The notes under the pieces are model-generated. The model was not told the DNA's origin and searched no databases. It saw nothing but the letters and a program-made list of their open reading frames with translations. This document shows positions 1 through 49,226 of a stretch of DNA of 64,000 nucleotides, piece by piece (within the stretch, counting starts at the first letter, position 1; every line of letters begins with the position of its first letter). The translations under genes were made by a program, and so were the position numbers. Origin of the DNA: Candidatus Omnitrophota bacterium. GTDB lineage: Bacteria > Omnitrophota > Gorgyraeia > Zapsychrales > Fredricksoniimonadaceae. The DNA lies in assembly GCA_043742785.1 (NCBI GenBank), contig JAYTXU010000002.1, forward strand, positions 9,707 through 73,706, read 5' to 3'.

Positions 1-715
1 ATCATTAATTCTTTTTTCCCATCCTCTTGTGAAGTCCATCTTAGCAACAGCCGTATTAAACAATTCTTCCGTGATCTTTACTTCTTGGTATTTCATATCA
101 AAGCTATAACCTGACAAGAGATTAATCCGTTTCATCGGAAATTTAGCCGTTGGGTGGTCTACAATTTCGCCGCCTAATTCTTTAATATGCCCTGGGAATG
201 GGTCATTAGCCGTTAACATGCCCCTGATTTCTAGAACAATGTCTTGATATTTTGTATCGTGGTATTTTTCAAAAGCTTTTATGATATTGGTCAGTGTTTT
301 AGAAGAAACATGCCAATGAAACTCATCAATGCTTACCCTAAAATCTATCTTAATTGGTGATAATCCCGCCGGCACTCTTGCCTTAAGAGCGGTAACCAAT
401 TGATCTAAATATTCCTCTGTTCTCTGTTTGCTGGTCGCAAAGTAACCGCTGGTAGACAACGTTATCCTTTGAACCTTTGCTTCTCGGATAAATCTTAAAA
501 CAGTCCCCATTTCACTAACAGCTTCACCGCCTGTCACATCAAGGTTATAAACAGATCTTGCATTAATATACCTAAGCACTCTGTCCAGCTCTTCGAGAGA
601 GAGAATTTTGGCATTCTTTTTAATCGGATTGGCCCGCATCCAACAGAATTCACACTGAACAGGACAATAATCCGTTATTCCTACCAAGATATTATCGAAA
701 TATTCGACTTTGTGA
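1..715 (-). other. Radical-SAM module 2 of the giant ORF (paralog of module 1; continues toward the window edge)
   Basis: GITDYCPVQCEFCWMRANP carries the CX3CX2C cluster at 643-666. It is followed by YNLDVTGGEAVSEMGTVLRFIREAKVQRITLSTSGYFAT. It is collinear with module 1 over its whole visible length. The last visible residues are ...AKMDFTRGWEKRIND at position 1. Confidence 0.7.
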
Positions 716-3700: not shown

Positions 3701-6700
3701 ACAAAGGTGACTGGAGGAACATATTGTGTTCCATAACTAATCGCTAAATCTTTTAGAAATGCTTGGAATTTGTCTGTGTTATATCGTTGATACGATTCCT
3801 TAAAAGGAAGGCCATGTTTCTGACGATACTCAGAGTGCGGATCCTTACTGCCGGGAGTCTCCCGATAGAAGTTATAATCATAGCTGACTGCAATGTGATG
3901 AATATCTTCCCAGTTGATTCCGTAAGCTTTTAATAAATAACGAGTTGCTTCTTTGGGGAAATACGCTGTTGTGTGTTTATCAAGATTAAGCCGCTCTTCT
4001 TCAATAGCCCCGATTAAAACCCCGTCTTTAATTAAAGACGCCACTGAATCATGCCCCGCGCGAACGACACCTAGAATATAGACAGGTTTGTTCTGCTGCT
4101 TTATGTCATCACGAGAATCACGATGATAAATTTTTACAGCCACCTCAGAGGAAGTCACAGCCTGTTTAACATAAAATCTATTGATTAATCCAAGCCGTTC
4201 ATTGATCTCTTGTCCTTTTTTATGAATCTTGATCACCTGCGTTTCCGTGACAATTGTTACTACACCGTCTTTCCAATCAACTCTTTGAATCCCTTTGATC
4301 AAAGATAATATTTCTATCACTGTTTTCTTTTGAGCTAAATAAATTAAAATTCCTGCTACAGCCAATACTCCTAATCCTACCCATCCCCATTGAGCAATGG
4401 TTAAACCTAAAATTGTTTTAACAACCGGCAAGACAGTTGCCTTGGCTGTGATATTTACCGTTTGCGCTGAAGCAGACAGAGCAATGCTTAAAAGGCCTGT
4501 TGAAATCAGCGCTGCAAGACTTGTTCTGTGCATTAATCCTTTGCTAAGTCTTCCTCTGAATTTCATAATCCCATTAGCGCCACCTAATTCTCGTCTATTA
4601 AAAGTAATCCGATTGTTCTGTTTTTCTTTTTGTTTTGTTAAAACAAATCGCGTTCTACATTCTAAAGCGTACCCAATGTATAGTGGTCTTGCCTGCGGAT
4701 GATCATTTTGGAAAGATTCCAAATTCTCAATCACTTTAATATCAAACTGATCTCTTAACTGAGAAGCCACTCTATGTTCAAACATATTAAGAGTCCCTTG
4801 AGACATAAAGAACTTCTTATCTAAGACATAGGCATTGATGGCTGCTTCCTTACTGACTGCTCCAAAACCAAAAGATTTCATCAAAACATCTAAAAGCGTT
4901 AAATTTAAAATATCTTCGTGTGCTAAAACTGTTTCAGGGAAGGTGTCAAAATATAATTTTATCAATGGACGTAAAAACCCTTTGTTGCGCAACTCGCTGC
5001 TAATAGAAACTCCCCTTAGAGCATATTGACCATCCTCTAAACGAATACTATAAATAAACATCTCGTTTCCAAGATCTTGTCCGTTTTCATCAATAAGATT
5101 CAAATAAATTCGATTGTAGATCTTATTCTCTATTGGATAATCTCTTACTCCCTCAATACGGAATTGATGTCCATTGATCCTTACAGTCTGCGGTGTTGTA
5201 CTTTGTGTTGGAACCGTTATCGATTGAAGATTCGGAAAAACAACATTTTGTGAACGTACAAACATAATTAGTACTGCTACAAAAATTCCCACCATCGCTA
5301 ACACACCTAATCCTATCCATCCCCATTGAACGATGGTCAATCCAAGAATTATTTTGGTTGCGACTACAACTGCAGATTTACTTGCAATAACTGTTGTTTC
5401 TGCAGAAGCAGATCTAGCCAAACTTAAAATTCCAATAGAAAGTAATATCATCAACGTCGTCGAACTGCCCCCGTCAAAATTCTCTTTACCATTTTGTTTA
5501 ACAATCGCTGTCTTGCTCTTTTTCATCCAACCTAAAAAGACAGTGCCGATTCTTTTTAAGACGAACGCCCCAAGAATTGCAGCAACGATGCTGGCTAAAG
5601 CCACGGCTACCTTACGTGCTAAAACATAATCAAACACCAAAACAGGCTTCCTTGGGGCAGGCCTGCCTGCCGGTGAGGCAGGGTGAGATACAACGGGTTT
5701 AGGATTATTCTGTTTCGGTGTTAATAAAGAAGTTGCTACGCCAGCTCCCACATTTGTTGCCTGTGGTGATACACGGGAATCACCACGCTTATTACCTGGG
5801 GCAGGGTGAGTAGCTGGCGTTAAATTATTTGTTTGAGCACTGCGAATAGCATTAGTTGAAGTTTTAGATGTTGCGTTTGTCTTTAATGTGATGACCGTCT
5901 TAGCGGCAGCTGTGTTGGAAGACACATTAACAACAGCATTGGTTGCTGGGTGTAAATTAACACGCCCCTTGGAAACATCCCCGCTAACAAATTCTAACGT
6001 GTCCCCTATTTGGATATTATGCTCTTGTGCGTACCCACTGCTTACTTCCAGGACATAGACAGCGTTTTGTTGAGACTCATTTCTTAATTGTTTGCTTGGC
6101 TCATCCTTACTAGCATTCTTTGTGATATGAATAATTTGCATTTGCTTATTAAGCCAGAGAATATCGATATTAAATTTCATATTAGGCATCGCAAATGCTG
6201 AATTGTGTACGCCTAAAAATAACATCCCCGCATTAGCTGCTAAATTAATTCTGTTGCTTAAACCATTTTCTTTTTTCTTTTGACTAACAGCCGCTTCAAC
6301 TTTGAGTTCAGCTTTGACCTCTTTGCCTAATAATCCTCGAATGATACCTCTTCCTACATCGCCATCTTTTCTAAGATAATCCGTTGCTTGAAATTTCGTA
6401 TCCTTTCCGGCTACACTTTCTACTTGTTTAACGCTAGCGATCTTTGACATTTCTGCCAAGCCTTCTTCAATCTCACGGGAAGTGGTGCATGCTAACGTTT
6501 TTCTTTGTAATTCTTGTTCTGACTCAAGTCGACTAAATACTTCCGAAGTGCTCATTACAGGGTTTGTTTGTTTTATTGAGCGACGATAGTCATTCCAAAT
6601 TTGTTCTGCGGTTGATATCTTCCTGTCTTCTGACTCCCTCTCTCTTCCTAAAAGTTCCCCTGCGAATGAACGGTTTCCTCTGACTAATCTTTCTTCTTCA

Positions 6701-9700
6701 ACTCTCTTTTGTTCCGCTTGAAGAGTGTTGTAATAACTAAAGTCTTCGGCAAAACCTGTGTCGGTGGGGAATGGTTTGGTATCTAGTACAACTTCGTATG
6801 GAACCACGAAATTTAATTCTTTCCATTTCTTAATAAGAGCATCAACTCCTTCAGAATCTTTTTCTGTCTCCATACGCTCTTCTGCTGCAGGACTATTTCG
6901 TTTTATTAACTTTCGTACAATAGAAAGTGATAACAAACTTAGCGATAATCCCCCTACGATTAAACGCCAATTATCATTAATAAATTTAAAAACGCCAGCT
7001 GCCACATTTGTTGCCTGTGGTGATACACGGGAATCACCACGCTTATTACCTGGGGCAGGGGGATCAGCTGGCGTTAAATTATTTGTTTGAGCACTGCGAA
7101 CAGCATTAGTTGAAGTTTTAGATGTTGCGTTTGTCTTTACTGTGATGACCGTCTTAGCGGCAGCTGTGTTGGAAGACACATTAACAACAGCATTGGTTGC
7201 TGAAGAAACTTTATTTACAACTTGAGCAGGGACAATTTTGTTGAATAGTTCTTTTTGAATCGCATCTTTATTGATATATCCAATCCTAAGGACTGTGGCA
7301 ATCATCAAAGAAGCAATAACTACCTTAATCTTATTCTGAGCGATCATCTTTATTGTATTCTTAGCAACATGAATTCCTGCTAACACGCTAAAGACAACTA
7401 GTGCAACCGCTTGACTTATTGCTTCCACTCCGATGAAGGACATGACACGGTTAACATTGAGGCTATAAGCCCCTGGCTTGCTGTTAATCTTAGCTGGAGT
7501 ATATTCCATTTGAGTTGTAAGCCAATCAATCTTCTCAAGCTGCACAATGGTGGGATTGTTATTGAGAATGCGTTCAGCTTTCTCAATCTCCGCGATTAAA
7601 TGATCCACGTTACCGATTCTTTGAAGTTCAGCGACATATTTCTTCAAGTATTCGATGCGGTTACGTAAATCATACGCAAACGGACTATAATTTGTTGCTG
7701 TTTGTGACCTGCCAACAAGTTCATTAATTTCTTTTTGAGCAGGATAAACATACTTATTGTCTTTTACATATTCTGGCTTACCCGCAATGGCTGTATTACT
7801 TAAGACTGTCAAAGCTCGTAATACGGCTGGCAAATTAACACGTGTATACATCTTGCGTGAATGACCAGGATATACGTGGAACAATCCGATCATTTCAATT
7901 GCTTCGTCCTTCTTATTATCAGGAATATCTCCCCATTTCTCAACTTTAACACCTAAATCAGTAATTGTTTTCTGTAATCGATCTTCTGCATTACGAGAAA
8001 ATTTAAAAATAGATCCTAAATTATATTGTAGACGTTCAATCTGATCGATCACTCCCCAAGTAAAGGCAAATATAATATGTGCAAAATTCTTCCTCATATC
8101 TTTCGCCTTATTATCTGTGCGGGCTGGATTAAAGAAGAATGGAGCTGCAATCCCTGCTAAAGGCATTAATAAAGTGAAGGCCCATAAAATAGCCTTAGTT
8201 GGATGGAAACCAATTGCAATAAAGACTAAAAGACCAAAACCTGCAGCTGTTTGAATAGCAGGAGCGCTGCGCATATAAACTGTATTCCAATCCAATTCAC
8301 GTTCAATATTAGCTCCCTTACCACCTGTACTAATGAAACGACCTAGGCGATTGGCAGCTAGTTTCCCAATCGTTTCGTTATAAACAAAAATCATGTGTAC
8401 ATAATAAGTAAATAATCTTGGAAATCCTTTAATTGTCTTTGCGATGCCTCCAACGTATCCATTAGCACGGTCAAAAATATTATAGAGGAATAAACCGTTA
8501 CTGATTGCTTGTGATAAGGCCAATGATCCAACCCATAACACAACAGGTAATCCTGAGAATAAGTTCCAATCAAGAACTAAATAGAATGGTACTAGCCATT
8601 TAAGGTAGCGGATAATCGCTGGCTTCTTTAAATAGAAACCAAATCCATCCAACCATAAATTGTTTACTAAATATGGCCAATCAACATATGGAGACATCAT
8701 CATCTTTAAATTCGTACGACCCGTTATAGATTCTACAGAGTCATAAGACCACTTACGGATTGGGTTGCGAGCTGCCTGGAATTGATTCGGCCAACCCTTC
8801 TCATCTTTAACATAACCAGCATATCCAGAAATATAACCAACACGACGATAAGCCATTGTTGTCAAAGCATCTTCAGCTACATAAGAATCGGTAATACCTT
8901 CAGACCAACGCAAAGCAGAAACACGTTCAAAAAGTTTACCGTAGGTTGTAAGCCCGCCGAAGAGCATCTTGCCCCTCATGGAGTGATAATAAAATGCATT
9001 TTCAGAAGTTGGCATTACTGAACCTAAAGGACCAATATCTTGAGTAATGGTATGTTTTACCACTGGCGTTGAGGTCGCTAATCCTGGATTATAGAAATAT
9101 TCATTAATATGGGCCAAAATAAACTGACTGTCTGCTATGTTAGTACGATGATCCGCATCAATATTCAACGCCACTGGTCCAATAATATAAGGAAGTTCTG
9201 ATGTCTTTTGGTTCCATTTAGAACGATGATAGATTTCTTGTTCATCACCAAACCTAGGAAGATTAGTTCCTTCAAATAAAAGAGCTGGGAACACTCTTTG
9301 TTTATAAACAAGGTTAAATAAATTCTTACTTCCTTCTTCATTTCTTAATAAATTGTCGATCACTTCTAAAGAAAGGCCTTTTATAGATTGTCCATTAGCA
9401 TCGATCTTTGCAGTATTTGTATAATTAGTTTCAATAAGAACATCTACAATCTCTCTTAATTTATTATTTAATACTCCATTGAGCTTATGAACAGCTGATA
9501 AATTTCGATCCATAATACGGAATCTGCTATACGCCCATTCATTGTCCATTCCAAACTGTTCTGCAATAGCTTCATAAATAACGAACATTGCTTCCTGATG
9601 AGAACGAGCATTGTTATAGCCCGTTGGTAATTGACGATTAGCCCATTCTTTAATCTGTGGCCAAATACTCCAAATTTCTATTCCCTCTGGCTTATGCATA

Positions 9701-12700
9701 GGTTTCTTAATCATCTTAAGCAATTCACTTCTTTCATTTGAATTTTCTGCTGTTAAGTGTCTTACCATCAACAAGAAAGCTTCTGTCTTATCCTTAGCCA
9801 ACATACCTAAACGATGCGTAAACTGAACTGTTTCTCCTGGAAGATCCGTTCCTAAAAGACCTACATTATTAAACCAGTAATCTTCAGTCGCACCATTAAT
9901 TAAAACTGTCATAGGAATGGTTTCATCAGCACTGGCTGGCTCTACGCCTTTATCCAAACGATAATTCCCATTGATATATTCAATAATACGAACCATTCCT
10001 GTTCGATCATCATTCTTAGCTCTAATTCCATTAACAATCACTGGCTTAGCTAATGCTTTAACCAACGCTTTGAGTTCAGCACGTAAAGCATTTACAGTTG
10101 TTTCTGAAGTATTAATTGTTTCGCTTAATTCTCTTAAACGAACAACTAGGTCAGTTCTATTGTCAATGGCCTTCCCTTGAGCAAAATAGTTATACCCATT
10201 ATCATTAACCATCTGTCCAACAATCCTGCTGAAAAATGCTAAGCGAACTTGACCTTGAGTCGCAAAACGATTAGCTCCGGTTGTTGGTGTTTTATCAGTA
10301 AATAATTTCATCAACCGATTTACTGCTTGTCTAGCGTTGCCTTTATTTTTAAGCTCATACACATTATTGACCCAGTTGTATCCGAAGCTAGCCATACCCA
10401 TAAACAAATAATTAGCGGCATAGAAGCTTAATCTCCAGGTTTCAATAAAGATGAGGGCGGGGATAATACGAAGCGGCCATTGTGCCCAAGCTGGAACTGC
10501 AAAGATAACCATGGCGCCAGATGGTAAAATCATTGACCAAGGAGTGATCAAAGCTCCTATCATGCTTAACGCTTGTAAGCCATAGAACATGATTAACCGT
10601 GCGCGAAGAGCTTTGAATGCAGATTTCTTTTCCTTCTCAAGATCTACAATCTTGGTTTGATCCTTTTCATCCTTTATTTGTGCTTCAATATCAGCAATAT
10701 CTGCTTCTAGCTTTTTACGTAATGGATTTTTAACTAAAGCACCTGCGATGAGATTGAAGATCGAAGCTCCTGCTGCCATAATGACTGCCCATGGCATGGT
10801 CATAAAGTTGGTTACCCCAACACCCTTTAGTAAAAGCCCTGCAGCTGGGAAGGCTAACCAAACAAATAAGGCAGTTACAGAAGCAATTAAAACATAATGG
10901 TAAGCCCTTCTCATCAAATCACGAGCTGTTTGATTATACGGACCACCTTTTGAGAAGATCGCATGACGCCAATTCTTGCTTTTTAATAAAGTCCATAAGG
11001 CTATTGCATTAATCTTCCACATCGCTAAACGTGTTTTGACAACTGGCATGCCAATTGCCTGATCAACGGTGTTAACAAAGGCAAGCATCAAAGGTTTAAA
11101 TTCACGTAAGAAGTCTTGAATAGCAGCTTCACGCTGGACAAAAGGAACATCTAATAACGTTTGCATCTCGAAAAGCTTTTGTTCAATTCTACGACGAAGA
11201 GGATCTATGTTGGTCATTACTTCTGCAGGAATTGCCCCTCCTGGCATATTCGCTGTAGCATCTTTTTGACCTAATAGATAACGGAAGGTATCGTTATAAA
11301 TTTCTTCAGTGATAATTTCATGGAAATAAGCTACCTTGCCTTTAGGATCACGGTTATCTTCAATTCTCTTTTGAATTTCATTAAATAGAAGAACATGGAA
11401 GACTTGTTTAAAAATTTTGACCTTATTAAGGAAGTTTGCCCCAACAAAGCTATTATTAGTCGTCAACGCAGGATAAGCATACTTAGCCCAGAGATACTCT
11501 TCTGCTCTTCCTTGTCCTGCTAATCCAAAGAGCGCGCGTTGGAAGATGACTTGCATAACAAATAACTTCTCAACAGAAACTAATGCGCTGCGGACTTGAC
11601 GTTGCATATCTGGTCCTTTGCGTAAATCATCCCAAGCATAAACAACCATGCTGCTCTTGATATCAAAATCATTAAAGCTAAAAAGCTCTGGTAATTGACG
11701 AGCATTGAAGATATTAGCAAAGAAGGTTTGCTTTAAAGCTTCGATCTGATTACCAAAGGCATTGTCAAAACCAGTTTCTGTAATGATCTTATTCGCAATA
11801 TTTTTAACATTACCCTGGAAGTCTTTGTGATCACGCATCTTGGCATATAGTTGCACCAAGATCGCTTGAGTTGCACGACGCTTATCAAAGGTATTCACAA
11901 GTTTCTTCACATATAAAGAACCAATCACCTGTTGCACGATTTCAATACTCATGAAGGCGTTCAACATTGTTTCAAAAGACTTAACTGCATTCTTTTCAGC
12001 ATCGTTAATACCGTACAAAGCTGTAAGTTCTTTCATAAATTCAACAATCGTTGCAGTTCTTATTAAACGACCTAAATCTTCTTGGGTAAATGTTTCTTTG
12101 TTAGCTGCATAACGAAATTTCTTAGCATTTTTCATAGCCACATAAAAACGTGCCTTAGTAAACAACGCGCGCAAAGAATGTCCTGATAGAATATGTAAGT
12201 TCTTTAATTCATTCTCAATACGATTCTTAAATTCTTCGTTATTTTTATAAGCTCCATTCATTTGACGATTTCGAACAATAGCCATTGATTGAGCAGGAGT
12301 AAAGCCCATTGATTCAAATGTCTGAACACCCTCATAATTAGCATCAACTTTGGAACGATTGCGCAATTGATAAAAGGTAAAACCAATTCCTGGGATAATA
12401 AACCCAATCATTAAAAGGAGTGTTGCCATTCCTCCGACAAACCACCAAGCGCCAATGCTGATTCTATTTAGCACTCCCATGACAGTGGTTCCTTCTTTAC
12501 CTTCATAAGTAGAAGAAGCAGGATTTGCGATATTGATCTTTACTTCTCGCCCATTTTTCTCAATTAAAGAAATGATATCGTTGTTCTTCATATCTGTAAT
12601 TTTTTGTATTCCCCAAGAAATTGGACTGTTACGGAAAAGATCTTCCATGTTAAATACTGACGGGTATGGAGCCGTGTTACGATTAAATCTATCTGCACTC

Positions 12701-15700
12701 CAAACCACTTGACCATTTTTAATAAGAATCTTACGGTCATCATTGATGCTGTGCGTAGCTACTTCAAAACCGCTTTGGGTAGCATGTTTTTCTGTCACTA
12801 ATTGCCAAATATCTCCGGACTTTTCATCAGCCCAGACCTTATTAATCATGTTACGGTAGCTGTATTCCGTTCCATCAACCATGCGATTAACAAAGACTGG
12901 ATAACTATTAAGATAATAAACGCGCAAGGTCATTGTGTTGTATTCGCGTTGTTCAAAATAAACACCCGTTGCAAGAGAGTATCTAGTGTCTACGTTATTA
13001 ACCTTTTCCATCCCTTCTTCAAGACCCTTATAAATAGCTTCCGAAGTTTTATTGTCTACAGAAGTTAACGCAGTGTCTCTGAGAACATTCTTGCCTCCTA
13101 ATAAGGTGCTAATATTTTGGTTAATAACCATTTGTCCTGGAGTCAACTCCAATTGAGAAGGCATCCACCACTTATTAATACTGGTTTCACCCGAAGGACC
13201 TTGAAGGGCAATGTCGCGGTTAAGAGGATCTTTAGGCATCAAATAACGATGCTGTGTTCCTGTGGCAAAATTCGTAAATACCCCGTTAAGATTAATATAG
13301 GGGACTTCAAGAAGCTCTGGTAACGGGGAGTCTTTATCTAAGCCGAATATTGTAAATTTATTCTGTACTCCATTCACAGCTTGTCCAAGCGTGATTGTTT
13401 TTCCTTCTTTCAAAGTGAAGGCATCCCCCACAGAAGTTGCCTTGATACCTTCTGTCGCTTTATCATCTTTCCAAGCCGTGTTAATAATCACAATTGGATT
13501 GCTGTTAGGACGAATAATTTCTACTACGGTACGGCCAAAGATATCTCCTTTAACGCGGTAACTTACAGACACCATCCCATATTCACGACTTGCTGTTGAT
13601 TTTTCAAGAGTTGCTTTTCCATTCTTAATGCCCATTTGTTGAGCAATAAATTCCACAGCCTTATTTGCTTTTAAAACCATCTCTTGATAAAGAACATTGT
13701 CTGAAACAACCGTGGCAATGCCTTTATTTAAATCTTCTGCTGAAGCATCTATTGTCACAGCTGATTTTTGATGCTCAAATTTCACAAAAACATTTGTTTT
13801 GTTTTCCAAAACAGCATGATAGGCTTCAAAGGTTCCTTGATTCTCATTCTTTAATAACACCTGGTAAAGATTAGTAACAGGACCAGGAATCTGTTCAATA
13901 TTTCCAATTTCACGAGAATGTTTTGTATCGATAATATACATTTTCTTGCTAAAGGTTCCGTTGGTCTCTTTACGGCCTGCTACAAAAAGATCTGAAACAC
14001 TAACGCCAGGAATTATTACAGGTAAATTCTTGAGATTAAAATTCATTTTTACAGCATACCCAACAATATCTTTTCCGATTTCATAATTATTGTTTGAGGC
14101 TGTGAAGTTATAGATTTCTCTTACCTCTTCTTCTGAATAACCAATAATCGCACTTCCTTTGCTAGCAACTCCGTTGACCATTTCCGTAGGATAAAATTCT
14201 ACATAAACAAGCCCAATACCTTTCTTCTCTTTACCTTCAATTGGAACAACAACAGCAAATGCTTTTTCAAATGCTCCCGTTGGAAGACGTCGTTCAATAC
14301 GTTGAACTTTTTGTCCTTTAACTTCAAATGATTCTCCAACCTTATGGGCGATCGCCAATAAGGTGTTTTCATTACGCTCTGTGTTAAATGGATAAATATT
14401 CTCTGTTCCATCGTTATTGACAACTCCCACCTGTACGTCATCTTGAATAAAATAAACACGTTCAATAGTCTCTGTTTTGCTCCCGTTGGTACGAATTTTG
14501 ATCACTTCGAAATTCTTATTGTTGCGAATAAATTCTTGATTAGCTGGAATCATCAACTCTGCCATGGTTAAAAATTCGCTGGTCTTGGCTTCTGTGTCAT
14601 TCAACATATAATTATTAGCTAAGAAATCTTTTACAGAATTGTATGCAACAGGCTGCGCCTTAACAGGAATGCGAGTTGTTCCTTTTTCTAATACAACTTG
14701 TTGATCATATTCTTCTCCAACAATAGGCTTGATATGACGGATACTTGTGCGGTTCTGATTCATTAAATCAATGAATTCTTTTGCGCTGTAAATTTTGATT
14801 TTGTTTGTTGATAAGTCTGAAGCTTCAACTCCGCCGGCAATCAGGGTTTCTAACTGAACCTTACGTTTTTCAAGCGCTTGTTTACCTGCATCCAAGATAG
14901 CCACCACGCGTCCAGCTTGAACCTTAATCATCATATTCTCTGTGATTGCGATCTTTTTCGTCTGGCCATTCTCATTACCGATCTCAATAGCCTGACCCAC
15001 ATACTTTTTATCTTCCACAAATTTAGCAGGAGCAAATTCATTAGCTTTAGCCGTTTCTATGTTCCCTGATGGAACAGAGATAGAAAGCCCTTGTCCTTCA
15101 TAGAATGGAAGAATTCTGCTTAAACGTTCATTCTCTGCGGCTGCCTTTGTAATCCATTCCTTCATTGTCTTCACAGATGGAGCAAAAATTCCAACGCTTT
15201 TACCGTCTACAGGCATTTGGATAAGAGCATTTCCAGGAACTTTGATTTCACGGCCGCCAACATTGAATACAATTCCCTTATCTGTTTTCACAGCGCTGAT
15301 AACAACAAGATCTGCATTTCTTAAATAACGGGCAACCTTTAAATGGCTTGTTGAATCAATCGCTTCTGGTTTGTTATTACTTAAATAGAAGATGGTGCCC
15401 GCCTTAGCTTGAGCTGCTGTATCCAAATCTTCTAACAAGTTGGAAGTTTCAAAGAGATATCCTGGAACCTTAGGAGTTAATTGATCCTGTAAAGCTTCGT
15501 TCATAGCCTTTGTAGCGGTCACTGGACCGTTATTATTTCTGACCTTATAATATTCCTTGACCACAGTACGAGATTCCCCAAACATAGAATTATAAGCATC
15601 CGCTGTACGGGTGAATTCATCTTTAGCATAATCGACAAAGACATTGCCAATTTTATGGGCGATTTCCATTTTAGTCGCTTTGACGGCATGAATTTCAGCC

Positions 15701-18700: not shown

Positions 18701-21700
18701 GTTTTTGCTGTACTGTCAACAACTGTACTATTTCCTGCAACTGCATTACTACGAACACTTATGCTCTTTTCCTCGTCTCCTTCATTTCGTCTGTCTGATG
18801 ACTTGAGGAAAGTCACGACAGAAGCAGTACGACCGCCGTCGCCGCGGCTCGCTTGTAATTCAGTCAAAGATACGGCCTTAGCGATCTCCAAATTATTAGA
18901 ACCTGCTTTACTTAAAGTTGTCTCTATGAAAGGCCTTGGAATTTCCAAAGCAATCGATGGATGAACAGGTGGCGGTGGAGAAGCCATTAAAGGTGTTGTT
19001 GGAGTGACCGGCGGCATCACAGGTGTTGGCGGTGCCACTGGTGTTGTTGGCGCAACCGGTGCCGGTGTTGTTGGTGCTACAGGCCCTGCTGTTGGAGCCA
19101 CAGGCCCGCCTGCCGGCGAGGCAGGAGCTGGAGTCGTTGGTGCTGTTGGTCCAGCCGTTGGCGTTGTTGGCGCTGGCGTACTGCCCCCATTGCCGCCTGG
19201 TGTACTTGGTCCATTAGCACTAGGACCAGGAACCGTTGGAACAGGAGAGGTGGCCAATGGAGCAGGCTGTTTATCAAGCGCTGCCAATTCTTCTAAGGTC
19301 GCCTTCTTTTCTTCTGGTGATAAATTTGAATTCTGAACATATTTCCTGTACTCTGCCTTTTCTTGCGGAGACTTCTTATCCCAAGCTTCTCTTAAAATAG
19401 CTCTTTTCTGGGCTACAACCTCTTGAGCTTCAGCAACAGCTTCATTGGCAGCCCTAACTTCTTGAGCTGTCTGCTGTTGAAGCTTTTGCTGCATAGCGCT
19501 AACTTCAGATCCCAATTGAGCCACAACGGCTGGCGGAGGAATGCTGTCTTTCGAATCAAATCTTGCATCTTGACCTTTAGCTAATACTGCTGAAACAAAT
19601 AGCAATAATGCCGCAACCAAGGACGTGCTCTTATTCATTTTAGAATACAAACTTGTTACTAAGATCGTCGCTGGGATCGCTATCAATCCCGCTGTTAACC
19701 CAAGAGGAATGCCTACGGCCAAGGCAGCCATCCCGCTCAACCAAGGATCGATGGTCACCCAAGATCCCACCTTAACTTGTGTGAAGTCTGCAAGTGGCCA
19801 GCCCTTAATGGCAATATGCTTGATTTCTAGATGAATCCAGCCGGGTTTCTTTTGTGTGGAATTATTCGTATCGGTCTCTTCAGCTTTAGGACTTTCTGTA
19901 ATCTTAGCTGCTAAGCGCTCAATCGTTTCCTTGCGAGGTTCAACCTTTGCCACAGACGTTTCAACAATAGCTTCTGCTTCCGCAGGGAATGGATCGGTAT
20001 CACTTGTTTGTTTAATCGCATCTACGGCCTTGCGTTCCTCTTCATTCAATTCTTCTGCGGCCTTACGGCTTTCTAAGATGGCTGAAATTTCCTTGACCAA
20101 ATCTCTTCTGGCCCCTTGAGGGAAGCTGGCGTATTGATTAAACAGATTCTCTAAGGCAATCATCACCGGCTCGCCATTGGGAGTGACAAAGAGCGGGCTC
20201 TTCTTAAACTCTTCTGGTGTTTCGGCAAGAAGCTTGCGGACAACCTGAGCTCTCTTTAAATTTTCAATGGATGGCAAGGTTCCCGCCGGTAAATTACTTG
20301 GACCAAAAACAAAGGACAGCAGAGCATCGATTCTCTGCTCGATGGCAGCACGCAGCACCCATTGCTTTCTCTTCTGTGTTTTTTCCTGTTCCATTTGCTC
20401 TGCCGTTTTTTCGCTGTAAGCCAAATGTTTAACACCATACTTATTTTGAATATATCCTAAAGCAATAGCGGCTACACGGCTAGCCACTTCACCCTCAAGA
20501 GGTTTACCATCGATAAAGATAATCGATGCAATCTGATCACCAGCTTCGCTTCCCGTAGCTTTTCCGTTTAAGGATTTGGCATGTTCAATAAAATCAAGAG
20601 CTTCTCTCTCTAAGCTTTCATCACTTAAAATCATCCTCTTAATAAATAAATTCGTCGACAATCCTTCAATTTGCCCTGAACGCGTCTTGTCGCTGTCGCC
20701 CACGGCCTTGGCTATCTGTCCTAAATATTGCGCTGTTGTGCTTAATCCTAAAGCCTTCAGCGCTTCATAAGGACTGCTTGGATTAATTTGTGTCAGAACT
20801 TGAACGGTAATAGAAGCAATTCCTTTACGCGTCTTGGCTATAAAATCATTGAACGCTCTCTGTTGTGGAGAAAACTTAAATAATCTTAAAACAGGATTGG
20901 TGTTGCCCTTGCTGTTACCTGCTTTTTGTAAAGCAACTAAAGCTTCTCTAGCTGACAAAAGACCTTTAAGAGCTTCTAAAATTTCTAGTTTATTGTTAGC
21001 CTTAGCAAGATTGGCAATCACCTGGATATCACTTAAGAAAGATACAGGATCATTAGAAACATCAAGAATAGCCTGTAACAACTCGTCGCTGTTCTTGGCC
21101 AATCCTTGGGTCATCAAAAGAATAGCCAAAGATAATTTATCAGCGCTATTAACGCCAGCTTCAAAGAGTTTATCAGCTGCTTCAAAAGTATTAGCTACCC
21201 CTAAGAATTTAAGGAACTCCTCTTTGCGGGATAATAATTGTTCGTTAAGCGCCTTAGCAATGCCTGCGATCGTTAAGCCCGTTAAGTTAACCTTATTGTC
21301 ACTATCAACAAAGTCGCCAGCAATCGGCATATCGATCGCCACAGCAATCTTGTCAGCCTCTTGACCTCCGGCCTTAAGCACCAATTGATTGGCGGATTGA
21401 ATTTCCTGACGGGCATTATGTCCCACGAAGAAGGATGGAAATAATCCTTGAGCAATACGTCCTAAGGAATCAAAGAGGCGTTCATAATAATTAGTTAATT
21501 CCTCCTTAGCGTTTAAATTGATGGTGTTTCTCTGTGGATCAGCGAGAACAGGATGCTGCATCACATCCGCCAAGGTTTCACTTCCTTTGGCATCAATGCC
21601 CTGGTATTGAACACGGCGCAAGCTCTCTTGAGTTTGGACTAAAGCGTTCTTTGTAGCCTTCTCAAGACCATCACTTAACTTACCGCCGACGCCAAGACCA

Positions 21701-24700
21701 ATAATATCATTAAGGATATTTTGAACAGAATTTAAGGAAGCAATTGCTTCAGTTTGTAGGCGCTCACTTGGAGAGAGCGCAAAGGCTAGGAGTTTCTCTA
21801 TAAATAAATTGTATCCGCCGGCCGACATCTTCTTGCGGATGGAAGCCATAATCTCCTTGTCTCCTGGTGAATTCTCATAGAGAGACAACATTTCTAAAAT
21901 CTGCATCAGCACATTGTGATACAAGGTATCTGCGATGACGTGATGAACCACTTGATCACGATGAGTTAAGTTATTGAGCTCAACCCAGCTTAATAAATCC
22001 TGCTCGCTAAAGTTTGAACCACCTGAAGCTGGACGGGTATTGATCCAAGAACGGATATCCTGATTCAAACCATTTGAACCCGCTCGTTCATTAACTAGAC
22101 TAACAATTTGCTCGGCATACTGATTCATCATTAAGCCGTCTTTGAGATTTCCATAGGTCAAGCGCAAGCCGTTGTTTGCTTCACCTAAACGGTTACGCCC
22201 TAAGGCTTGTTCTAAAACATCCTTATTCCAGAAAATAGCATCGGGAACATGATTGACCACATCGCCTACAAAGTTCTTACCTTGAGAAGCAAACGGTAAA
22301 GTGGCGATGATCCATTTACTATCCGCCGCCTTTGTGCCCTGTAAGAAATTAAGAATATCCGCTGTTTCACGATTGGTACCGTCTAAGATAATCGCTCTGC
22401 GCTCATATTGAGGATCATTATGTGCAGCTTTAACTTCCGCCAGCGTAATCGTGCGAGGAGCCAAATAGATATTGCCGCCACTTCCCGCTAATCTTGCCTT
22501 AAGCTTGGTTTCAAATTGATCTAGATTCCCGCGCATGATCATCTGCACCAAGGCACCACCAGTTGTTGCTCCACTCAATAATTGATCGATCACAGAATCG
22601 ATGACAGCGTCGATATCAGCAAAATTATTACTAAAGGTTACTCTTCCGCTTTGTAGATCATCTTTTAAATTATTCGGATTAAATCTCTTATAGGTAAACT
22701 CGGGGAACATCATCTTTAAAACTTCTTCCGATGCACCCGGCGTTGCTGTAAACCCGTGGATATTGACACCCGTCAAGATACGGGCCAAGGCGTATTGATC
22801 TAAGGTTTCAGAAGAAATATTTAAGTTGTCCACATCCAATTCTGGTCCCTGTGGATGGGTGTTTTTATAGTCGATCGTAAAGGCTAAGAGATACGGTAGA
22901 TTGTTAAATATCTTATTTTCCGGCTCTCCCTTTTCGTTCACTGGCATAGGTGCAAACTTATTCTGCTTTTGGTCATAGGCAACAGCTAGGCGTTTGCCTT
23001 TTTCTACCAAGTACAATAAGGTGTTATAGAAGGCCACCTGTCCATTAAAGTCGCTCGCGGCAACCTTAAAGGCATCATAGGTTTCCTGTGGGATATCCAA
23101 ATGCCCTTGCATAGGGGCTTCTGGATTGGGCGATTGGGTGTAGAGTACATAGGCTTCGCCTGCCAGCGGATTCTTCTGCATTTGAATATATTCTTCTCTG
23201 GAAGAAATCACCTTGATCTTGGCAACCCCTGTTCCTGCTAAAGCTTCTTTAATCTGAGGCAAGTACTCTTCGACCTTAGCTTTGACTTCCTTAGCGAAGG
23301 TGTTGTCCTTGAGCGGCCCCGATTGAGACACAATGAAATTATAGAGAGAAACGAAATTGTGAATTTCATCAACCACCGCTTCCTGCAGGCTGCCTACGGC
23401 ATCGCGCATATCCTTCTTATTCTCAGGTGTGGAGGTAATAGTTAAGAACCCGCGCTGGCCAACGGAGGTGACCTTGATTAAATTATTATTCTTCAAATCA
23501 TTAATAATCATGCGTTCAATATCGGCTGGCTGAGAGATGCCTAATTGAGTGGCGTATTCATTAGGCAGGCCGGCTAACAAATCTTGTTGTGCCTTACCTA
23601 ATTTTTCCATATTCACCAATGGACTCGTCGGCAGCTCACTTTGAGGCTTGCCTGTTAATTCGCTGACCACTAATTTGACCAAATCCTGGAAGGATAGATT
23701 GATCTCTGCCTGAACTTCATCGACAAAACGATCAACGTCGCCGCTGTCATTGAGCAACCACATGGTGTTTTTCCCTTGAGCTAGGTAGGTAGCGGCTAAG
23801 ATTACTTGAGAAAGCGTCTTACCCGACCCCGTGGCGGCGGCGATGTTTTGATTGTCTCTGTAGGCCGTTTCAAACATTTCCCACTGTCTATTGAAATAAT
23901 CATCCCCTTTTTTCACCTTAGAAGAAGCCTTCACCTTTTCATAAACAATCGCTTTTAATTGATCCAATTGAATCTGACCAAATAGATTAGCCGTAGTTGG
24001 TGCGGTTGTAATCATCGCCTTGCTTACACCTGACAATTGATTGCCTAATTCAGCCTGGCGATCATTAGCCCACTGTTCCATTTGGTTTAATACAGACTTG
24101 GCTCCTCTTTCTGGCGCATTCGGTAATCCTTGGGCTGTTAGGGCCGTATTAATTTCTCTGTTAAGGCCGTATGACTCAGGGAATCTTCTAGCGTTATCGA
24201 TGGCTGTCTTGAATTCTTCTAGAACATAATCTGTTTTCTTGGATTTTATCCTGCTCTTGATTAAGGTATACAAAACTCCTGCAGCAGCTAAAACAGCTTC
24301 CTGATTTTCCGGCGTTGTCATGGCATAGTCTCTAAGCTTATCGGGACCCTCCTTGAAACCAGCGGTACTTTGATCGCCATTCGCATCTAATAGAACCCCC
24401 ATCTTTTTAGCTCTAATCCTTCTATCCTCAAGACTTTCAACTGGAGGATTAGGGACAGTTCCATCGACATCTTCTGTTACCATCGCATTGTTAGAGAAAT
24501 CGCTCTTGGCATCATTAGCAATGTTTCTATCACCCCGAGCTATGGCTGTTGCCTGCATGACTTCTCTGAAGCTTAAATTGAAAGGCATTGCCACTGGAAG
24601 AGCGGGGACAATTCCTTGATTAACAGGAATTTGTACGGGTTCTTCTGGAGCATTTAATTGTATTGGAACGTTTGTTGTCCCTGATGATACTTCTTCGCCG

Positions 24701-27700
24701 GCTGATTGTTCTGCTTTTTGATTGCGGCTTTCAAAGATTTGATCGGCGACTTCTCTACTGCCAAAGGTGTATTCCAAAACTTGCTTGATAGCTTCCACAC
24801 GCAACTTGTACTGAGCTTGTTCTTGCTCGGTTGCAGTATCGGCAGGTGGAGGCAATTGAACACTTCTTAATATTTCGATGACTTGAAGCTTAATGCTGTC
24901 CGCATTATCGGCAATAGCCTTGCTTTGTAAAATACTAATGATGGTTCTGCCTGAATCATTCAGCATTGCTTCATCTGTTTGTCCGCTGTATCCATCCTCA
25001 CCGATCGCTTCAATGATTCTGTCCTTGGTATTTCCTATTAATGGGAAAGAGCGGCCCAATAAAGCGCGTTTGACAATATTCAAAGCTTCTTCGGGACCTT
25101 GTGGACCCTTAACCAATTTACCCTGATAGTAAGTAATCATGGCGCTGTCATTAAATTCTTCATTAAGAACAATGCTGCTGATATTGCTGATGGGTCTGGA
25201 AACAGCTTGTACAGAAGAACCGACGTTGCTTTTATATCCATTAGAAATTCTATTAACTTTGGCAATATTCCTGGCAGCAATCCATACTTCAGGACTTCTC
25301 ATAGCCGCATCACGAAATTCTGGGCCTTTCTTTGCACCCATTGCCAAGCTCATTGAATCGCCAAATTGATTCAATTTTAATAATTGATTAACCTTAGCTT
25401 GATCGGCCCTGCTCATGGCCTTGTCAGGCAAGATTCGAATAATTCGAATATTATCCAAACCAAACCATTGATCTCTCAAATTCTTAGTGAACTTTTCATT
25501 TAATTCAACATTAGCTGCTGGATTAGTTTTGCTATCGATATAAAGATCCGTTAAAACTCCCTCTATAATAGGAAGAAGATTTTTAAATTGTTCACGACTT
25601 CTAAGCTGAGACATCTGATTGATTAAAGCAGTAACCTCTGATTGGGTGATCATGGCTTTATCTTTAACATCGTTGATTGCTTTCGTAAGCTCTTCTGCTG
25701 TCATAGGCACTGGTTTTGAATCTTCTACGCTATGTCTGATCTGACCGCCAATGCGTTGGCCGTTTGATAACTTCTCGGTAGGGCCTTTAAATGTTTCATT
25801 GGCCTTCACTAGCATTCTCATCGTTACATCCTTACCTGCTTTATTCTTGCCAAAAGGAAGAATATTAAAATACGGCATTGCCTGACCTTTACGCCATGAA
25901 AGATTGATCAGCTTATCAGTACTGTTAGCTACCGCAGGTTGAACAACTGGAAGATTTGTCTTCACAACCGGTGCTGGGGTATTTGGAACAGCTGGATTAG
26001 CTACGGGTGTGTTGGCAACTAGAACTGGAGCCTGTGCTGCTGGTGGATTGGTTACTGTTTTTGTAACAGCAGGAGCGTTAGACTTGGCTTCCTTAATGGC
26101 TTCTTGCCAATTGGTAACTGCAACTGTAACAGGACCATTACTTGCTTCTTTCTCATCCTTAAGAAGGGCTTCGCGCATTTCTTTAATTGTTCTATTTAAA
26201 TCTAACCCTTCTTGTTTCAATAGGTTGATCTTGTTCTCAGGTCTTTCTTGATCAAATTTCTTTGCCATGTCCTCAAGGGTAGAAGAATCTTTTAATCCAT
26301 ATTTTTCAGGATTCATTAAATATTGACGAAATAGTTTTTTAATAGCTGGAAGTTGATCTTTAAGACTAACAATATAGAAATTAGTTCTGTCTTTTGGAAT
26401 AAGGTGTCCATATTGTTTATTTAAAGTTGGGTATCCTAGAATATGATTCCAGTTGCGCATTGTTGGGTTATTAATACGCAATGGTAGTTGAGCAGCTACT
26501 ACATTTGTTCCATCAAAAATATTAATAAGCCCTTCAGTCTGAATAGCCGTCTTTCCTAAAGCATTCAAATAGACTTGCTGAGCTTTGACGGATTGCTGCG
26601 AAGCTAAGGACAACACTCCTGCTCCAATAGCCATCATCCAATTTTTAGTTCTGCTCCCAAGAGAAATCATCGCCTTGCTAGACTTTGAAAAATCATTCCA
26701 TACCTTCAACACTTCGACCGCGTTCTCTTTGTATTTTTTAGCGTCGCCTGTTTGATTTAATTTCTCAGCAGCATAGGAAAGTTCGAATAATCTTTCTGCG
26801 GTTTTATTAACCTGCTCGCCAAAATCTGATCTGTTTTTGATAGCCTGAGGCTTGACCAGCATTGTGGAAACTAATCCTGCTGCTCTGTTTAAAGCCTGCT
26901 GCCCTTCAGAAATCATCGCGTGATCACTACGATTAATTTGGCTATTGACAGATGAATTATTTGATGTATTATCAATTTTGTTTGATTCTTTGTCAAAGCC
27001 TAGGTCGCCCCGGTAGCTCAATTGGATAGAGCCTCTCCTTAACGAAGAGACCGATGCGGGTTCGAATCCCGCCTGGGGCGCCTTGAAGGGATTTTGTTGT
27101 GGTCTAAGGGAGAGCGATGAAATCCCCCGCTTGACAAAACTATTCTTCCATGATAAATTTCTATTATCTTCGTTAGGGGGAAGCTGAAATACGCTACCGG
27201 TTGTGAGGGCAGGAAGATTTTCTTCTTGCCCTTTTTTAATTTGTTCTTGAATATCTTTGGCCTTGCTCTTAAGATCTGCGCTGCGTGTCTTTAATTTTTC
27301 AACAAAGACATTCACAGCCCCTTGTAAAGATTGTTCCGCTTTTCTTTCTTCTGCTAAAATCTTATTGGATGCTTCTACGTCTCCATTTTCTTCTAATTGA
27401 CCAAAAGCTTTATAGCTTTGACGAATCTGTTCTTCGATAGCCTGCATTTTCTGATAATCAGCTTTATCCTCATCGCTAACAATGACCTTTTGAATTTCTT
27501 CTAACTGAACACCTGCTGTTAATCCCTGCTCAATAGAAGAAATATTTTTATCCGTGGTATACACCTGATTTTGTAAACTATCCAACTGACCTTTAGGAGA
27601 AGCATCATATTGGGCATTCCATTGATCCACTCTTGCCTGCTGAGCTTTAATTTCTTCGGGCGATGGAGCAACAATTTCTCCAGCAGCCGCTTGACTAGCT

Positions 27701-46971: not shown

Positions 46972-47046
46972 TTTTTATGGTCAAACTTTTTATCGCCTTC
47001 TGCTTGCCAGCAGATAATTCTCGACGATGCCGCCCCGTATAAACAG

Positions 47047-47617: not shown

Positions 47618-47893
47618 ATGAATGATTTTCTTTGGGATATCGAACGAGAAGCCGTCAATATCGCTAAACATGGCGTTGATTTTAGTACAGCTGCCCTAGT
47701 ATTTAACGACCCTCAAAGAAAAGTTTTTATAGATTTAAAACATAGTCAAAACGAAGATCGGATGATCTGTATTGGTAAGCTTCACGATAAAGTTCTAACT
47801 GTTCGATTTATCTATCGCGATGGAAAAATTAGGATTTTTGGAGCAGGTTACTGGAGAAAAGGAAAAGACTACTATGAAAAAGAATTCTGCTGA
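47618..47893 (+). CDS. brnT: BrnT-family (DUF497) type II toxin
   Basis: The 91-aa product is MNDFLWDIEREAVNIAKHGVDFSTAALVFNDPQRKVFIDLKHSQNEDRMICIGKLHDKVLTVRFIYRDGKIRIFGAGYW. This is the typical BrnT pattern: F.WD..Ka..N..KHGv.F.ea..vF.D ... R.IsaR. Confidence 0.85.
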   Translation: MNDFLWDIEREAVNIAKHGVDFSTAALVFNDPQRKVFIDLKHSQNEDRMICIGKLHDKVLTVRFIYRDGKIRIFGAGYWRKGKDYYEKEFC

Positions 47894-48104
47894 TCCCTTG
47901 CTGCCTATAGGCGAATTAAAACAAATCGCTGACTTTTTACCTCCTCCTCACCAATTGGTCATGCCTGAAGCAACGGTTAAGGTGACTTTGTCACTGACTA
48001 AGTCAAGTCTAGAATTCTTCAAACGAGAAGCCAAAAAGAACCACACTAAATATCAGAAAATGATCCGCGCTCTAGTTGACCGCTACGCCCATATTAGTTC
48101 ATAG
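47874..48104 (+). CDS. brnA: BrnA-family antitoxin (RHH/CopG-like)
   Basis: MKKNSADPLLPIGELKQIADFLPPPHQLVMPEATVKVTLSLTKSSLEFFKREAKKNHTKYQKMIRALVDRYA. I prefer the internal ATG at 47874 (codon 19 of the track ORF 47820..48104), which overlaps the brnT end by 20 nt as in typical brnTA pairs. Confidence 0.75.
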   Translation: MKKNSADPLLPIGELKQIADFLPPPHQLVMPEATVKVTLSLTKSSLEFFKREAKKNHTKYQKMIRALVDRYAHISS

Positions 48105-48140
48105 TTCACAGTGAACCATGAACTATGAACATTTTTATTT
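48097..48140 (+). terminator. Hairpin plus T-run after brnA
   Basis: GTTCATAGTTCAC (48097-48109) pairs with GTGAACCATGAAC (48111-48123) with one mismatch, followed by TATGAACATTTTTATTT. It shares the GTTCATAGT...ACTATGAAC arms with the hairpin at 49827-49860. Confidence 0.45.
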
Positions 48141-48166
48141 ACACCCTTGCCTCCTTGTGCTAATAT
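48138..48166 (+). promoter_or_regulatory. Candidate promoter TTTACA-17 nt-TAATAT, implying a leaderless mRNA for the 48174 gene
   Basis: The -10 ends at 48166 and the ATG is at 48174, leaving 7 intervening nt and no Shine-Dalgarno sequence. The predicted start site therefore coincides with the start codon. Confidence 0.35.
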
Positions 48167-48173
48167 TTAATTC

Positions 48174-49151: not shown

Positions 49152-49197
49152 AATCAGAACCTGTGGCTAATTTATCCAGATGTATTCATTTGTATGC

Positions 49198-49226
49198 TTG
49201 ACAACTACAAAAACATACGATATATT
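49198..49226 (+). promoter_or_regulatory. Near-consensus sigma70 promoter TTGACA-17 nt-TATATT upstream of the RHH/RelE pair
   Basis: TTGACA is at 49198-49203 and TATATT at 49221-49226. An AAAGGAG ribosome-binding site (GGAG at 49285-49288) lies 7 nt before the ATG at 49296. Confidence 0.5.

Follow-up and report, generated by a model that had tools for sequence, protein, structure and literature searches.

The closest described counterparts of the gene analyzed here are the giant genes of Omnitrophota, whose products carry a C39 peptidase domain near the N-terminus, DEAD-type modules, many membrane helices and radical S-adenosylmethionine (SAM) domains (West-Roberts et al. 2023, bioRxiv 10.1101/2023.11.21.568195; 2026 preprint 10.64898/2026.06.07.730766). 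Both reports state that it is unknown whether the giant products are cleaved, and where. We analyzed a 64,000-nucleotide (nt) stretch of a Candidatus Omnitrophota contig (assembly GCA_043742785.1, contig JAYTXU010000002.1, positions 9,707 to 73,706; hereafter the window), whose minus strand holds one stop-free reading frame of 15,658 codons (46974..1) that runs past the window's left end. The predicted architecture of this giant open reading frame (ORF) places it with the Omnitrophota giants: it exceeds 15,000 codons and encodes a C39 domain, a candidate DEAD-type ATPase, many transmembrane (TM) segments and radical-SAM/metabolic modules. It reads through a transfer RNA (tRNA), and a tRNA inside a giant ORF is mentioned in neither report. 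Separate-gene counterparts, and the words 'fusion' and 'fused', are also absent from both, whereas the window gene has such counterparts on another contig, L002.

The gene can also be compared with composite ('Rosetta stone') proteins, because two of its components are separate ORFs in L002 and the junction between its carbamoyltransferase and radical-SAM modules maps to the termini of the separate proteins. In contrast to such proteins, it is far larger, it has many modules, and one of its joins passes through a tRNA unit on the other strand. The explanation that we favor is that the gene is probably a mosaic, produced by the in-frame joining of once-separate genes and by in-frame duplication inside it. 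A preliminary description of this sequence had drawn attention to four internal ATGs (26670, 19638, 5526 and 4566; leaders 1 to 4), each followed by a signal-peptide-like stretch, and had read them as the N-termini of independent secreted or membrane proteins that were captured by loss of stop codons. The four Met-led sequences are real, their reading as signal peptides is unsupported, and growth of the ORF by accretion is partly supported, at two boundaries (near leader 1 and at amino acids (aa) 15037/15038). In the mosaic reading, leaders 2 to 4 are probably internal membrane anchors.

The long frame is not an artefact of a single assembly, because an independent Logan assembly, SRR23617268_201172 (run SRR23617268, covering window 7173-56155), gives the same open ORF. 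This assembly is identical over its 16.3-kb readable part, and its gene call extends from ATG 46971 to the contig end, still open (a 13,266-aa product), spanning leaders 1 and 2 and the tRNA. The likely promoter of the giant ORF is at 47074-47047 (-), with a 10/12 consensus match and an extended TG. The first 97 codons after ATG 46971 are acidic, of low complexity and low in coding score. The true start might instead be ATG 46683 (M98), which is followed by the signal-anchor-like helix MPFVSNFKQWIKSVAIIILLVFIPDQVSWA.

The sole junction that was mapped to the residue separates the carbamoyltransferase module from two tandem radical-SAM modules (Table 1). The upstream partner of the carbamoyltransferase module differs in each relative, and only one relative, contig L002 (JGI Ga0506529_0002795), carries both modules. 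On L002, the genes for a carbamoyltransferase (P0001; 10001-12538), a 1008-aa protein and a 784-aa double radical-SAM protein (15598-17952) follow one another as separate ORFs, with spacers of 12 and 20 nt and a GAGG 8 nt before the last ATG. The end of the first protein (RNWNIVG-stop) and the beginning of the last (MTTTKAIPER) correspond to RNWNLV-KAQEN(SQ) in the window, a residue-level join at which L002's stop, spacer, start and intervening 1008-aa gene are all absent. The expectation that relatives would carry the modules as separate ORFs is borne out for the carbamoyltransferase and the double radical-SAM protein; leaders 3 and 4 were not seen in any homologue. The proposed route does not fit this junction, where more than a stop codon was lost and where there is neither a Met nor a leader. 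In the window, the C-terminus of the carbamoyltransferase thus runs residue to residue into the N-terminus of the double radical-SAM protein.

The direction of this event determines what it says about accretion. If the fused state were ancestral and L002 had undergone fission or gene insertion, the junction would be silent on accretion in the window gene. Only a single relative shows both modules, and the extra 1008-aa gene of L002, together with an abrupt break in its G+C content, indicates that the contig is rearranged or chimeric. Fission, however, would have had to create a stop, a start and a ribosome-binding site, and L002 does possess each of them, arranged as a tidy operon. In P0003 and the L007 ORF, too, the protein stops at this C-terminal boundary of the module or just beyond it. 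In published surveys, gene fusion is commoner than fission. We consider fission or insertion in L002 to be unlikely, and infer that the join arose as a fusion, by deletion, in the window lineage. The G+C content of L002 drops from ~0.58-0.72 to ~0.28-0.42 (overall from about 58% to about 42%) at 9900-10000, 50 nt before the carbamoyltransferase ATG; either the contig is chimeric, or it holds an 8.4-kb low-GC island in a high-GC genome. The gene boundaries farther downstream on L002 all fall within the low-GC part and are unaffected by the break. The coding score dips at the N-termini of the radical-SAM modules, but these dips were rejected as former spacers, since the Cys-rich CxxxCxxC region explains them. 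A scan of GTDB genomes with the carbamoyltransferase region found no relative.

The second boundary lies near leader 1, where the frame crosses a tRNA-Val(AAC) cassette. The tRNA had been taken for a former intergenic gene. It is indeed a real tRNA, 337 nt from ATG 26670, and cassettes of its kind lie between ORFs elsewhere, but it is encoded on the plus strand, antisense to the giant ORF. All four of its stems are intact save for a C31·A39 mismatch. An A34 valine anticodon is unusual for bacteria. The promoters and the terminator of the cassette, identified as consensus matches only, are listed in Table 1. Among terminator-like sites in the 64 kb, that of the cassette has the longest stem and the most G-C pairs; on the minus strand its hairpin is followed by no T-run, and it should therefore not stop transcription of the giant gene. 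Promoter matches of 11/12 occur only four times in the 64 kb: two flank tRNA-Val(AAC), and the other two stand directly upstream of ordinary genes, at 49198 (+) and 52347 (-). These features suggest that tRNA-Val(AAC) is functional and that its expression still relies on the promoter and terminator of the cassette.

Within the giant frame, the cassette resembles intergenic DNA that happens to be read. The codon-usage log-likelihood is positive almost throughout the ORF and negative, as in non-coding sequence, across ~27190-26995. Over the 109 codons at 26917-27243 there is no stop in the giant frame, compared to 3-15 stops in each of the other five frames (shuffle P = 0.00125, with the caveat that this frame is also open in homologous cassettes from other genomes). 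A cloverleaf within a long transcript, at the boundary of a coding unit, recalls mitochondrial tRNA punctuation and antisense ('mirror') tRNAs. Unlike the mitochondrial case, this is a bacterial gene, the tRNA is served by a promoter and a terminator of its own on the other strand, and the ribosome must read the tRNA's complement. A 12-nt repeat, GCGATGATTTCT on the coding strand (encoding A-M-I-S), is present at 26662-26673 (M6769) and at 26908-26919 (M6687), 82 codons apart; the likeness does not reach past the 12 nt and is possibly due to chance, and the repeat was set aside.

An exhaustive protein search with aa 6081-7280 as the query returned two groups of matches. The first group consists of ~17 clusters of short predicted proteins (79-251 aa) that align to aa 6571-6668 and are antisense ORFs over homologous tRNA cassettes in other metagenomes. 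Contig L026, from an unrelated run (ERR11523660), has a second tRNA-Val(AAC) at 430-505 (-), and L024 and L025 have tRNA-Val(CAC) and tRNA-Gly(GCC). The four cassettes follow one layout: promoter 1, the tRNA, a trailer hairpin, promoter 2 (TTGACAC-17-TGATATATT), a conserved segment and a terminator (GGGCAGG...CCTTGCCC). Cassettes with different tRNAs share their promoters and terminator and occur in tandem. Between the Val(AAC) tRNAs of the window and L026, two stem pairs have changed in a compensatory manner (C13-G22 to T13-A22 in the D stem and T27-A43 to C27-G43 in the anticodon stem). Because the layout is kept and the stem changes are compensatory, tRNA-Val(AAC) is a conserved member of the cassette family and no decaying relic; because the same anticodon recurs in the L026 cassette, it is a conserved tRNA species rather than the product of a single chance mutation. 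Five contexts were examined, and in each the flanking ORFs are co-directional, antisense to the tRNA and cut off from the cassette ORF by stops or frame changes. This arrangement is the unfused state that a model of growth by accretion needs.

The same cassettes have further properties. On L024:1-3919 and L026:1-941, the antisense frame across the cassettes is open for 132-235 codons and abuts long co-directional ORFs that lack Pfam matches, which raises the question of whether tRNA cassettes commonly lie within or between very long genes in this lineage; a Pfam search of the ORFs flanking the L024 cassettes found no family. In each of the four cassettes (Val-AAC twice, Val-CAC and Gly-GCC), a second conserved promoter stands ~50 nt past the tRNA 3' end. 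It is followed by a ~40-nt segment, 84-95 nt past the tRNA, that is the reverse complement of the tRNA's 5' half (~4-43), and then by the terminator. This segment tracks the identity of the tRNA (alignment scores of 42-44 for cognate pairs versus at most 36 for non-cognate pairs), suggesting either a small RNA directed against the tRNA or an alternative fold of its precursor. No description of the antisense segment was found in a literature search. Scans of GTDB genomes with a tRNA D-arm/T-arm pattern, and of viral contigs with the tRNA pattern and with aa 6687-7486, found nothing.

The second group of matches, ~80 clusters, aligns to aa 6800-6938, a conserved domain of ~135 aa that starts two residues past the cleavage site predicted for leader 1. 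The closest matches (36-47% identity) are standalone proteins of 130-3,146 aa that begin with the domain; in many weaker matches it is C-terminal, which points to a mobile terminal domain. BLAST places residue 1 of P0032 and P0034 on M6781 and residue 1 of P0033 on aa 6783, and in a MAFFT alignment the Met of 11 of the 13 standalone proteins falls on the window's 'MAIGAG'. One standalone protein, P0026, begins as an ordinary gene within a tight co-directional cluster of unknown genes; two others, P0034 and P0037, have RadC-like JAB domains. Large polyvalent proteins of phages and conjugative elements offer a further comparison: the 135-aa domain is N-terminal in proteins of 650-3,150 aa, at least one of them in a phage-like co-directional cluster. 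The 135-aa domain is all that the window gene shares with these proteins, and no PHROG or Pfam family matches it. A word-index protein search with aa 6500-7300 had given no match, a negative that the exhaustive search later showed to reflect limited sensitivity.

The best-supported candidate for a fossil start is consequently ATG 26634 (M6781), 12 codons inside leader 1. A former gene start in this area, as the preliminary description proposed, is thus supported; it is better placed at M6781, and the homologous N-termini are hydrophilic and not signal peptides. We infer that the site of leader 1 and the tRNA was a gene boundary. The upstream part (aa 1-~6570) is joined to the downstream part through the antisense cassette, whose frame happens to be open, and the downstream part begins with the domain that is N-terminal in standalone relatives, whose start codon corresponds to M6781. 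In a different account, no gene boundary existed here: the ORF was already continuous when a cassette with an open antisense frame entered it, and ordinary domain shuffling brought in the 135-aa domain. The ~17 clusters in which the same antisense frame is open agree with such an insertion, as do the shared promoters and terminator of the tandem cassettes, which suggest a duplicating unit, the C-terminal position of the domain in many proteins, and the fair coding scores of the 95 codons between the cassette and M6781. Yet the first Met of the standalone proteins falls on an in-frame Met-Ala, the cassettes of other genomes stand between distinct co-directional ORFs and not in continuous ones, and no flanking direct repeats were found around the window cassette. 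We therefore regard insertion into a continuous ORF as doubtful, though it deserves to be kept in mind.

We now consider the leaders themselves. The four ATGs are all internal to the giant frame, in stop-free surroundings, and encode M6769, M9113, M13817 and M14137; the leader peptides quoted for them match the translation exactly. Using a rule-based scan (a net positive n-region, an uncharged h-region of 10-17 aa and the -3/-1 rule), we found 28 signal-like h-regions in the giant ORF. Met residues start such windows 11 times, including the four in question, compared to 10.95 times expected from 487 possible positions. Of the 27 hydrophobic segments, 17 have a Met at most 25 aa upstream, versus 11.7 expected (our own arithmetic, at a Met frequency of 2.25%). 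Met residues ahead of signal-like stretches occur at the chance level and have no statistical weight. Shine-Dalgarno motifs before the four ATGs were uninformative as well, because genuine genes in the window seldom have one, and no C39-type double-glycine leader motif is present near the module boundaries.

Taken literally, all four leaders would be fossil signal-peptide N-termini, each captured by a point loss of the upstream stop. All four do pass the n/h/c and -3/-1 rules, as do seven other internal Met sites, and their h-regions (13-16 aa) are shorter than a typical TM span; leader 1, whose hydrophobic core is weak and below the TM thresholds used, overlaps a start that homology supports. 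Leaders 3 and 4 share a G[WI]MK beginning, a Pro/Thr-rich linker follows leader 2, as in exported proteins, and the L002 operon has spacers so tight that stop loss could easily fuse genes. However, Met residues at such sites are at the chance level, the N-termini homologous to leader 1 are hydrophilic, leader 4 is missing from five carbamoyltransferase relatives, and the enzymes that follow leader 4 are of a cytoplasmic type. At the single junction resolved to the residue there is no Met, and the loss went beyond a stop codon. Leaders 2 and 3 are each set off from a preceding helix by 1-2 residues, with no spacer; the search for a former-spacer signal upstream of the leaders found no coding-score dip before either, and a weak one before leader 4. 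A minus-strand promoter matching at least 10/12 positions was found near none of leaders 2 to 4; only leader 1 has a possible promoter upstream. Altogether, we judge this literal model very unlikely.

The mosaic reading instead takes leaders 2 to 4 as the first helices of close helix pairs, in which case they are not fossil N-termini; sequence and enzymology both point this way. Each of the three is at most 35 residues from another hydrophobic segment. Leader 2 is followed by coiled-coil-like, Pro/Thr/Ser-rich low-complexity sequence. The motif ILGLTI(A/V)QWGW(V/I)GLGVLA, reported after the last two leaders, is confirmed at aa 13876 and aa 14188 and accompanies leaders 3 and 4 only. These two leaders are paralogues, 57% identical across 61 aa and 78% across 74 nt, at a spacing of 936 nt (312 codons); the cassettes that contain them, cassettes 3 and 4, stem from a duplication inside the gene. 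They were not borne out as the N-termini of former secreted or membrane proteins: no homologue carries either, and they are copies of one internal cassette. A word-index search with aa 13760-14300 found no homologue. In place of leader 4, five carbamoyltransferase relatives show different sequence, and the second helix of cassette 4 sits where all five have a conserved 'FEFD..AL.FF' helix.

Each of the two leaders had also been said to precede an enzyme-like module. This holds for leader 4, which is followed by Carbam_trans_N/C and then by two radical-SAM domains, and does not hold for leader 3, where module X has no Pfam, PDB sequence or fold match (its AlphaFold2 model is poor, with a predicted local distance difference test score (pLDDT) of 57). 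An impression by eye that module X is a GNAT acetyltransferase was unsupported by the same searches. The enzyme modules that follow cassette 4 depend on ATP, carbamoyl phosphate, SAM and iron-sulfur clusters. The N-terminal flank of this cassette contains eight Lys/Arg residues and the inter-helix loop two, and the C-terminal flank starts with QKK. This distribution of charge is in line with an in-out-in hairpin, which would keep both of its neighboring modules cytoplasmic, and would tether these cofactor-dependent enzymes to the membrane. Relatives anchor the same enzyme by other means: P0003 has an N-terminal Bac_transf domain with a TM helix, and the L007 ORF has a C-terminal TM pair. Cassettes 3 and 4 are thus probably duplicated membrane tethers.

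A related possibility is that the internal leaders act as signals today: cassettes 3 and 4, and perhaps leader 2, would be procoat-like hairpins that signal peptidase I cuts after ASA or VLA, and the gene product would be a polyprotein from which enzyme pieces anchored in the membrane are released. Such a reading is about what the cassettes do at present, and any origin of the gene would agree with it. It draws on the S-A-S-A that both paralogues keep despite their 57% identity, on a layout of positive n-region, short h-region, AXA, ~20-aa loop, TM helix and KK, and on the fact that the cleavage of giant proteins, and its sites, is a stated open question in the field. The layout of M13 procoat resembles these cassettes, as do the internal signals that punctuate flavivirus polyproteins. 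Unlike either, the cassettes lie ~14,000 residues into a bacterial protein, and their cleavage is putative. With just two paralogues, selection on the motif cannot be shown, the boundaries lack C39-type double-glycine sites, and signal peptidase rarely cleaves internal signal sequences in bacteria. Cleavage at these sites seems unlikely to us.

Several observations weigh against the mosaic reading and against the anchoring that goes with it. The direction of the join at aa 15037/15038 has parsimony as its sole basis. P0001 was rejected as proof of a separate start, because of the G+C break and because the in-frame codons there resemble an internal linker of the L005 ORF and P0002. No related genome was found to carry the parts that flank the tRNA cassette as a separate gene pair: relatives came to light for the cassette and the 135-aa domain alone, and the ORFs flanking cassettes elsewhere have no similarity to the window. 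Being mobile, the 135-aa domain could have arrived by shuffling, with no gene start attached, and the cassette could have entered an already continuous ORF, since its antisense frame is open elsewhere and the sample is biased to open copies. The sense-strand promoter-like site between the tRNA and M6781 (26996-26968) is largely conserved cassette sequence, in which a single base change relative to the other cassettes gives the perfect -35. The ASA motifs are kept in both cassettes 3 and 4, and a plain anchor does not need them. Finally, topology was judged by hydropathy rules and not by a trained predictor.

A more elaborate reading is that the giant ORF is an actively punctuated unit, with a live tRNA cassette and its antisense element, a sense promoter and procoat-like ASA cuts. 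The sense-strand promoter-like site, after which the first ATG is the in-frame ATG 26916 (M6687), is a hint of internal initiation and not evidence for it. We hold this reading to be a long shot. If it were true, the sense promoter could restart transcription for the distal part of the gene, at least 9,000 codons, and one frame would yield several RNAs and proteins, answering whether giant genes act as one product.

The composition of the gene varies along its length, which fits the mosaic reading. The G+C content at third codon positions (GC3) in 250-codon windows ranges from 0.20 to 0.50, with a standard deviation of 0.058 compared to a binomial value of 0.03. Its mean is 0.415 over aa 7251-9110 and 0.28 over aa 1401-6000, and at the change-point at leader 2 it falls from 0.415 to 0.339 as GC2, the value at second positions, rises to ~0.6. 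The gene also contains an in-frame direct repeat of 211 nt (Table 1), which encodes a Ser/Thr/Asn-rich linker, each copy followed by a TM helix; its near-identity suggests that the ORF has recently undergone internal duplication or gene conversion. A second 'DUF192-like' copy at aa 13171-13328 was rejected, because its likeness stems from the duplicated linker and not from the domain. The bulk of the remaining sequence has no Pfam match, and a Pfam scan of the giant ORF found no match to SecA_DEAD (PF07517). The 27 hydrophobic segments come from a Kyte-Doolittle scan, a heuristic.

Small genes with toxin-antitoxin family matches lie between the giant gene and the next operon (47618-49815). That upstream operon, at 49846-63986 (-), encodes enzymes of sugar modification (a C-methyltransferase, a DegT aminotransferase, a GT2 glycosyltransferase and two B12-binding radical-SAM proteins), two T2SSF (TadB/C-like) proteins and a 1,185-aa protein.

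Table 1. Features of the giant gene, its surroundings and its relatives (positions in the window unless a contig is named; relatives are those of the carbamoyltransferase module)
Feature	Position (nt)	Strand	Residues or length	Remarks
Giant ORF	1..46971	-	at least 15,657 codons from ATG 46971	no stop up to the window's left end
Peptidase C39 (PF03412)	45853..46083	-	aa 298-374	Pfam 38.7 bits, cut-off 22
Helicase-like ATPase module	33811..34275	-	aa 4234-4388	ResIII 25.1 bits (cut-off 22.5); DEAD 24.4 bits (cut-off 26, just under)
Intrinsic terminator of cassette	27205..27243	+		13-bp stem, 6 G-C pairs, then TTTTTAATTTG; 123 nt after tRNA
Segment, reverse complement of the tRNA's own 5' half	27166..27200	+		degenerate in window copy, 5-nt gap
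Promoter 2 of cassette	27131..27159	+		TTGACA-17-TAAATT with TG, 10/12; kept in 4/4 cassettes
Loci of antisense segment	27131-27243; L026:230-640; L024:2280-2990	+ (window); - (L026, L024)
tRNA-Val(AAC)	27007..27082	+		ARAGORN; Rfam RF00005 54.4 bits (threshold 29), E = 1.9e-10; antisense to giant ORF
Sense-strand promoter-like site	26968..26996	-		TTGACA-17-GATAAT, 11/12; between tRNA and M6781
tRNA promoter 1	26945..26972	+		TTGACA-16-TATTAT, 11/12; position kept in four cassettes; 35 nt before tRNA
Intergenic-like island	26917..27264	-	~aa 6571-6686	antisense translation of cassette, read in frame
Leader 1	26581..26670	-	M6769-A6798	contains M6781
ATG of M6781 (Met-Ala)	26632..26634	-	M6781	aligns with Met1 of standalone P0032 and P0034
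Conserved domain	26161..26577	-	~135 aa, aa 6800-6938	no Pfam or PHROG match
Leader 2 and preceding hydrophobic segment	19579..19740	-	M9113-A9132; aa 9079-9111	compositional change-point
In-frame direct repeat	5738-5948 and 6992-7202	-	211 nt	97% identity, 1254 nt apart
DUF192		-	aa 13558-13662	Pfam
TM helix, then cassette 3	5236..5628	-	aa 13783-13814; M13817-aa 13913	signal-like helix ending ASA, short loop, TM motif ILGLTIVQWGWIGLGVLA
Module X	4567..5235	-	aa 13914-14136	family unassigned; AlphaFold2 pLDDT 57
Cassette 4	4330..4566	-	M14137-aa 14215	paralogue of cassette 3
Carbamoyltransferase module	1864..4308	-	aa 14223-15037	69% identity to P0001 (L002), 56% to P0002
Carbam_trans_N/C		-	aa 14300-14898	Pfam
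Fusion junction NWNLV/KAQE	1858..1869	-	aa 15037/15038	no Met, no leader
Two tandem radical-SAM modules	1..1863	-	aa 15038-15658+	54% identity (window aa 15050-15657) to separate 784-aa L002 gene
Radical SAM / Fer4_12, two copies		-	from ~aa 15066 and ~aa 15430	Pfam
BrnT-toxin match	47618-47893	+		ORF
HTH protein	48174-49151		325 aa	weak PRTase match
RHH_5 match	49296-49538	+		ORF
ParE-toxin match	49492-49815	+		ORF
P0001	contig L002		845 aa	69-73% identity; called as separate gene
P0002	Candidatus Omnitrophota metagenome-assembled genome		1,309 aa	56-58% identity; N- and C-terminal extensions; best taxon-labelled homologue of any module
P0003			1,107 aa	45% identity; module preceded by Bac_transf domain (with TM helix)
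L005 ORF			at least 1,759 aa	62% identity; N-terminal signal peptide, unknown sequence, PfkB-like and cupin-like by eye, then module
L007 ORF				42% identity; module, then two TM helices, stop

These results carry a caution for the annotation of giant proteins, in which signal-peptide-like calls are expected by chance among many membrane helices. For the window gene, the candidate sites at which sub-products may begin are the starts at 26916 and 26634, the promoter-like site at 26996-26968, and the ASA motifs after aa 13858 and 14170. At this locus an ORF runs through a tRNA unit that is encoded on the other strand and apparently functional, a feature mentioned in neither of the two reports on giant genes. 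The origin of the Omnitrophota giant genes, and whether each acts through one product or several, are open questions, to which this locus adds residue-level evidence of gene joining.

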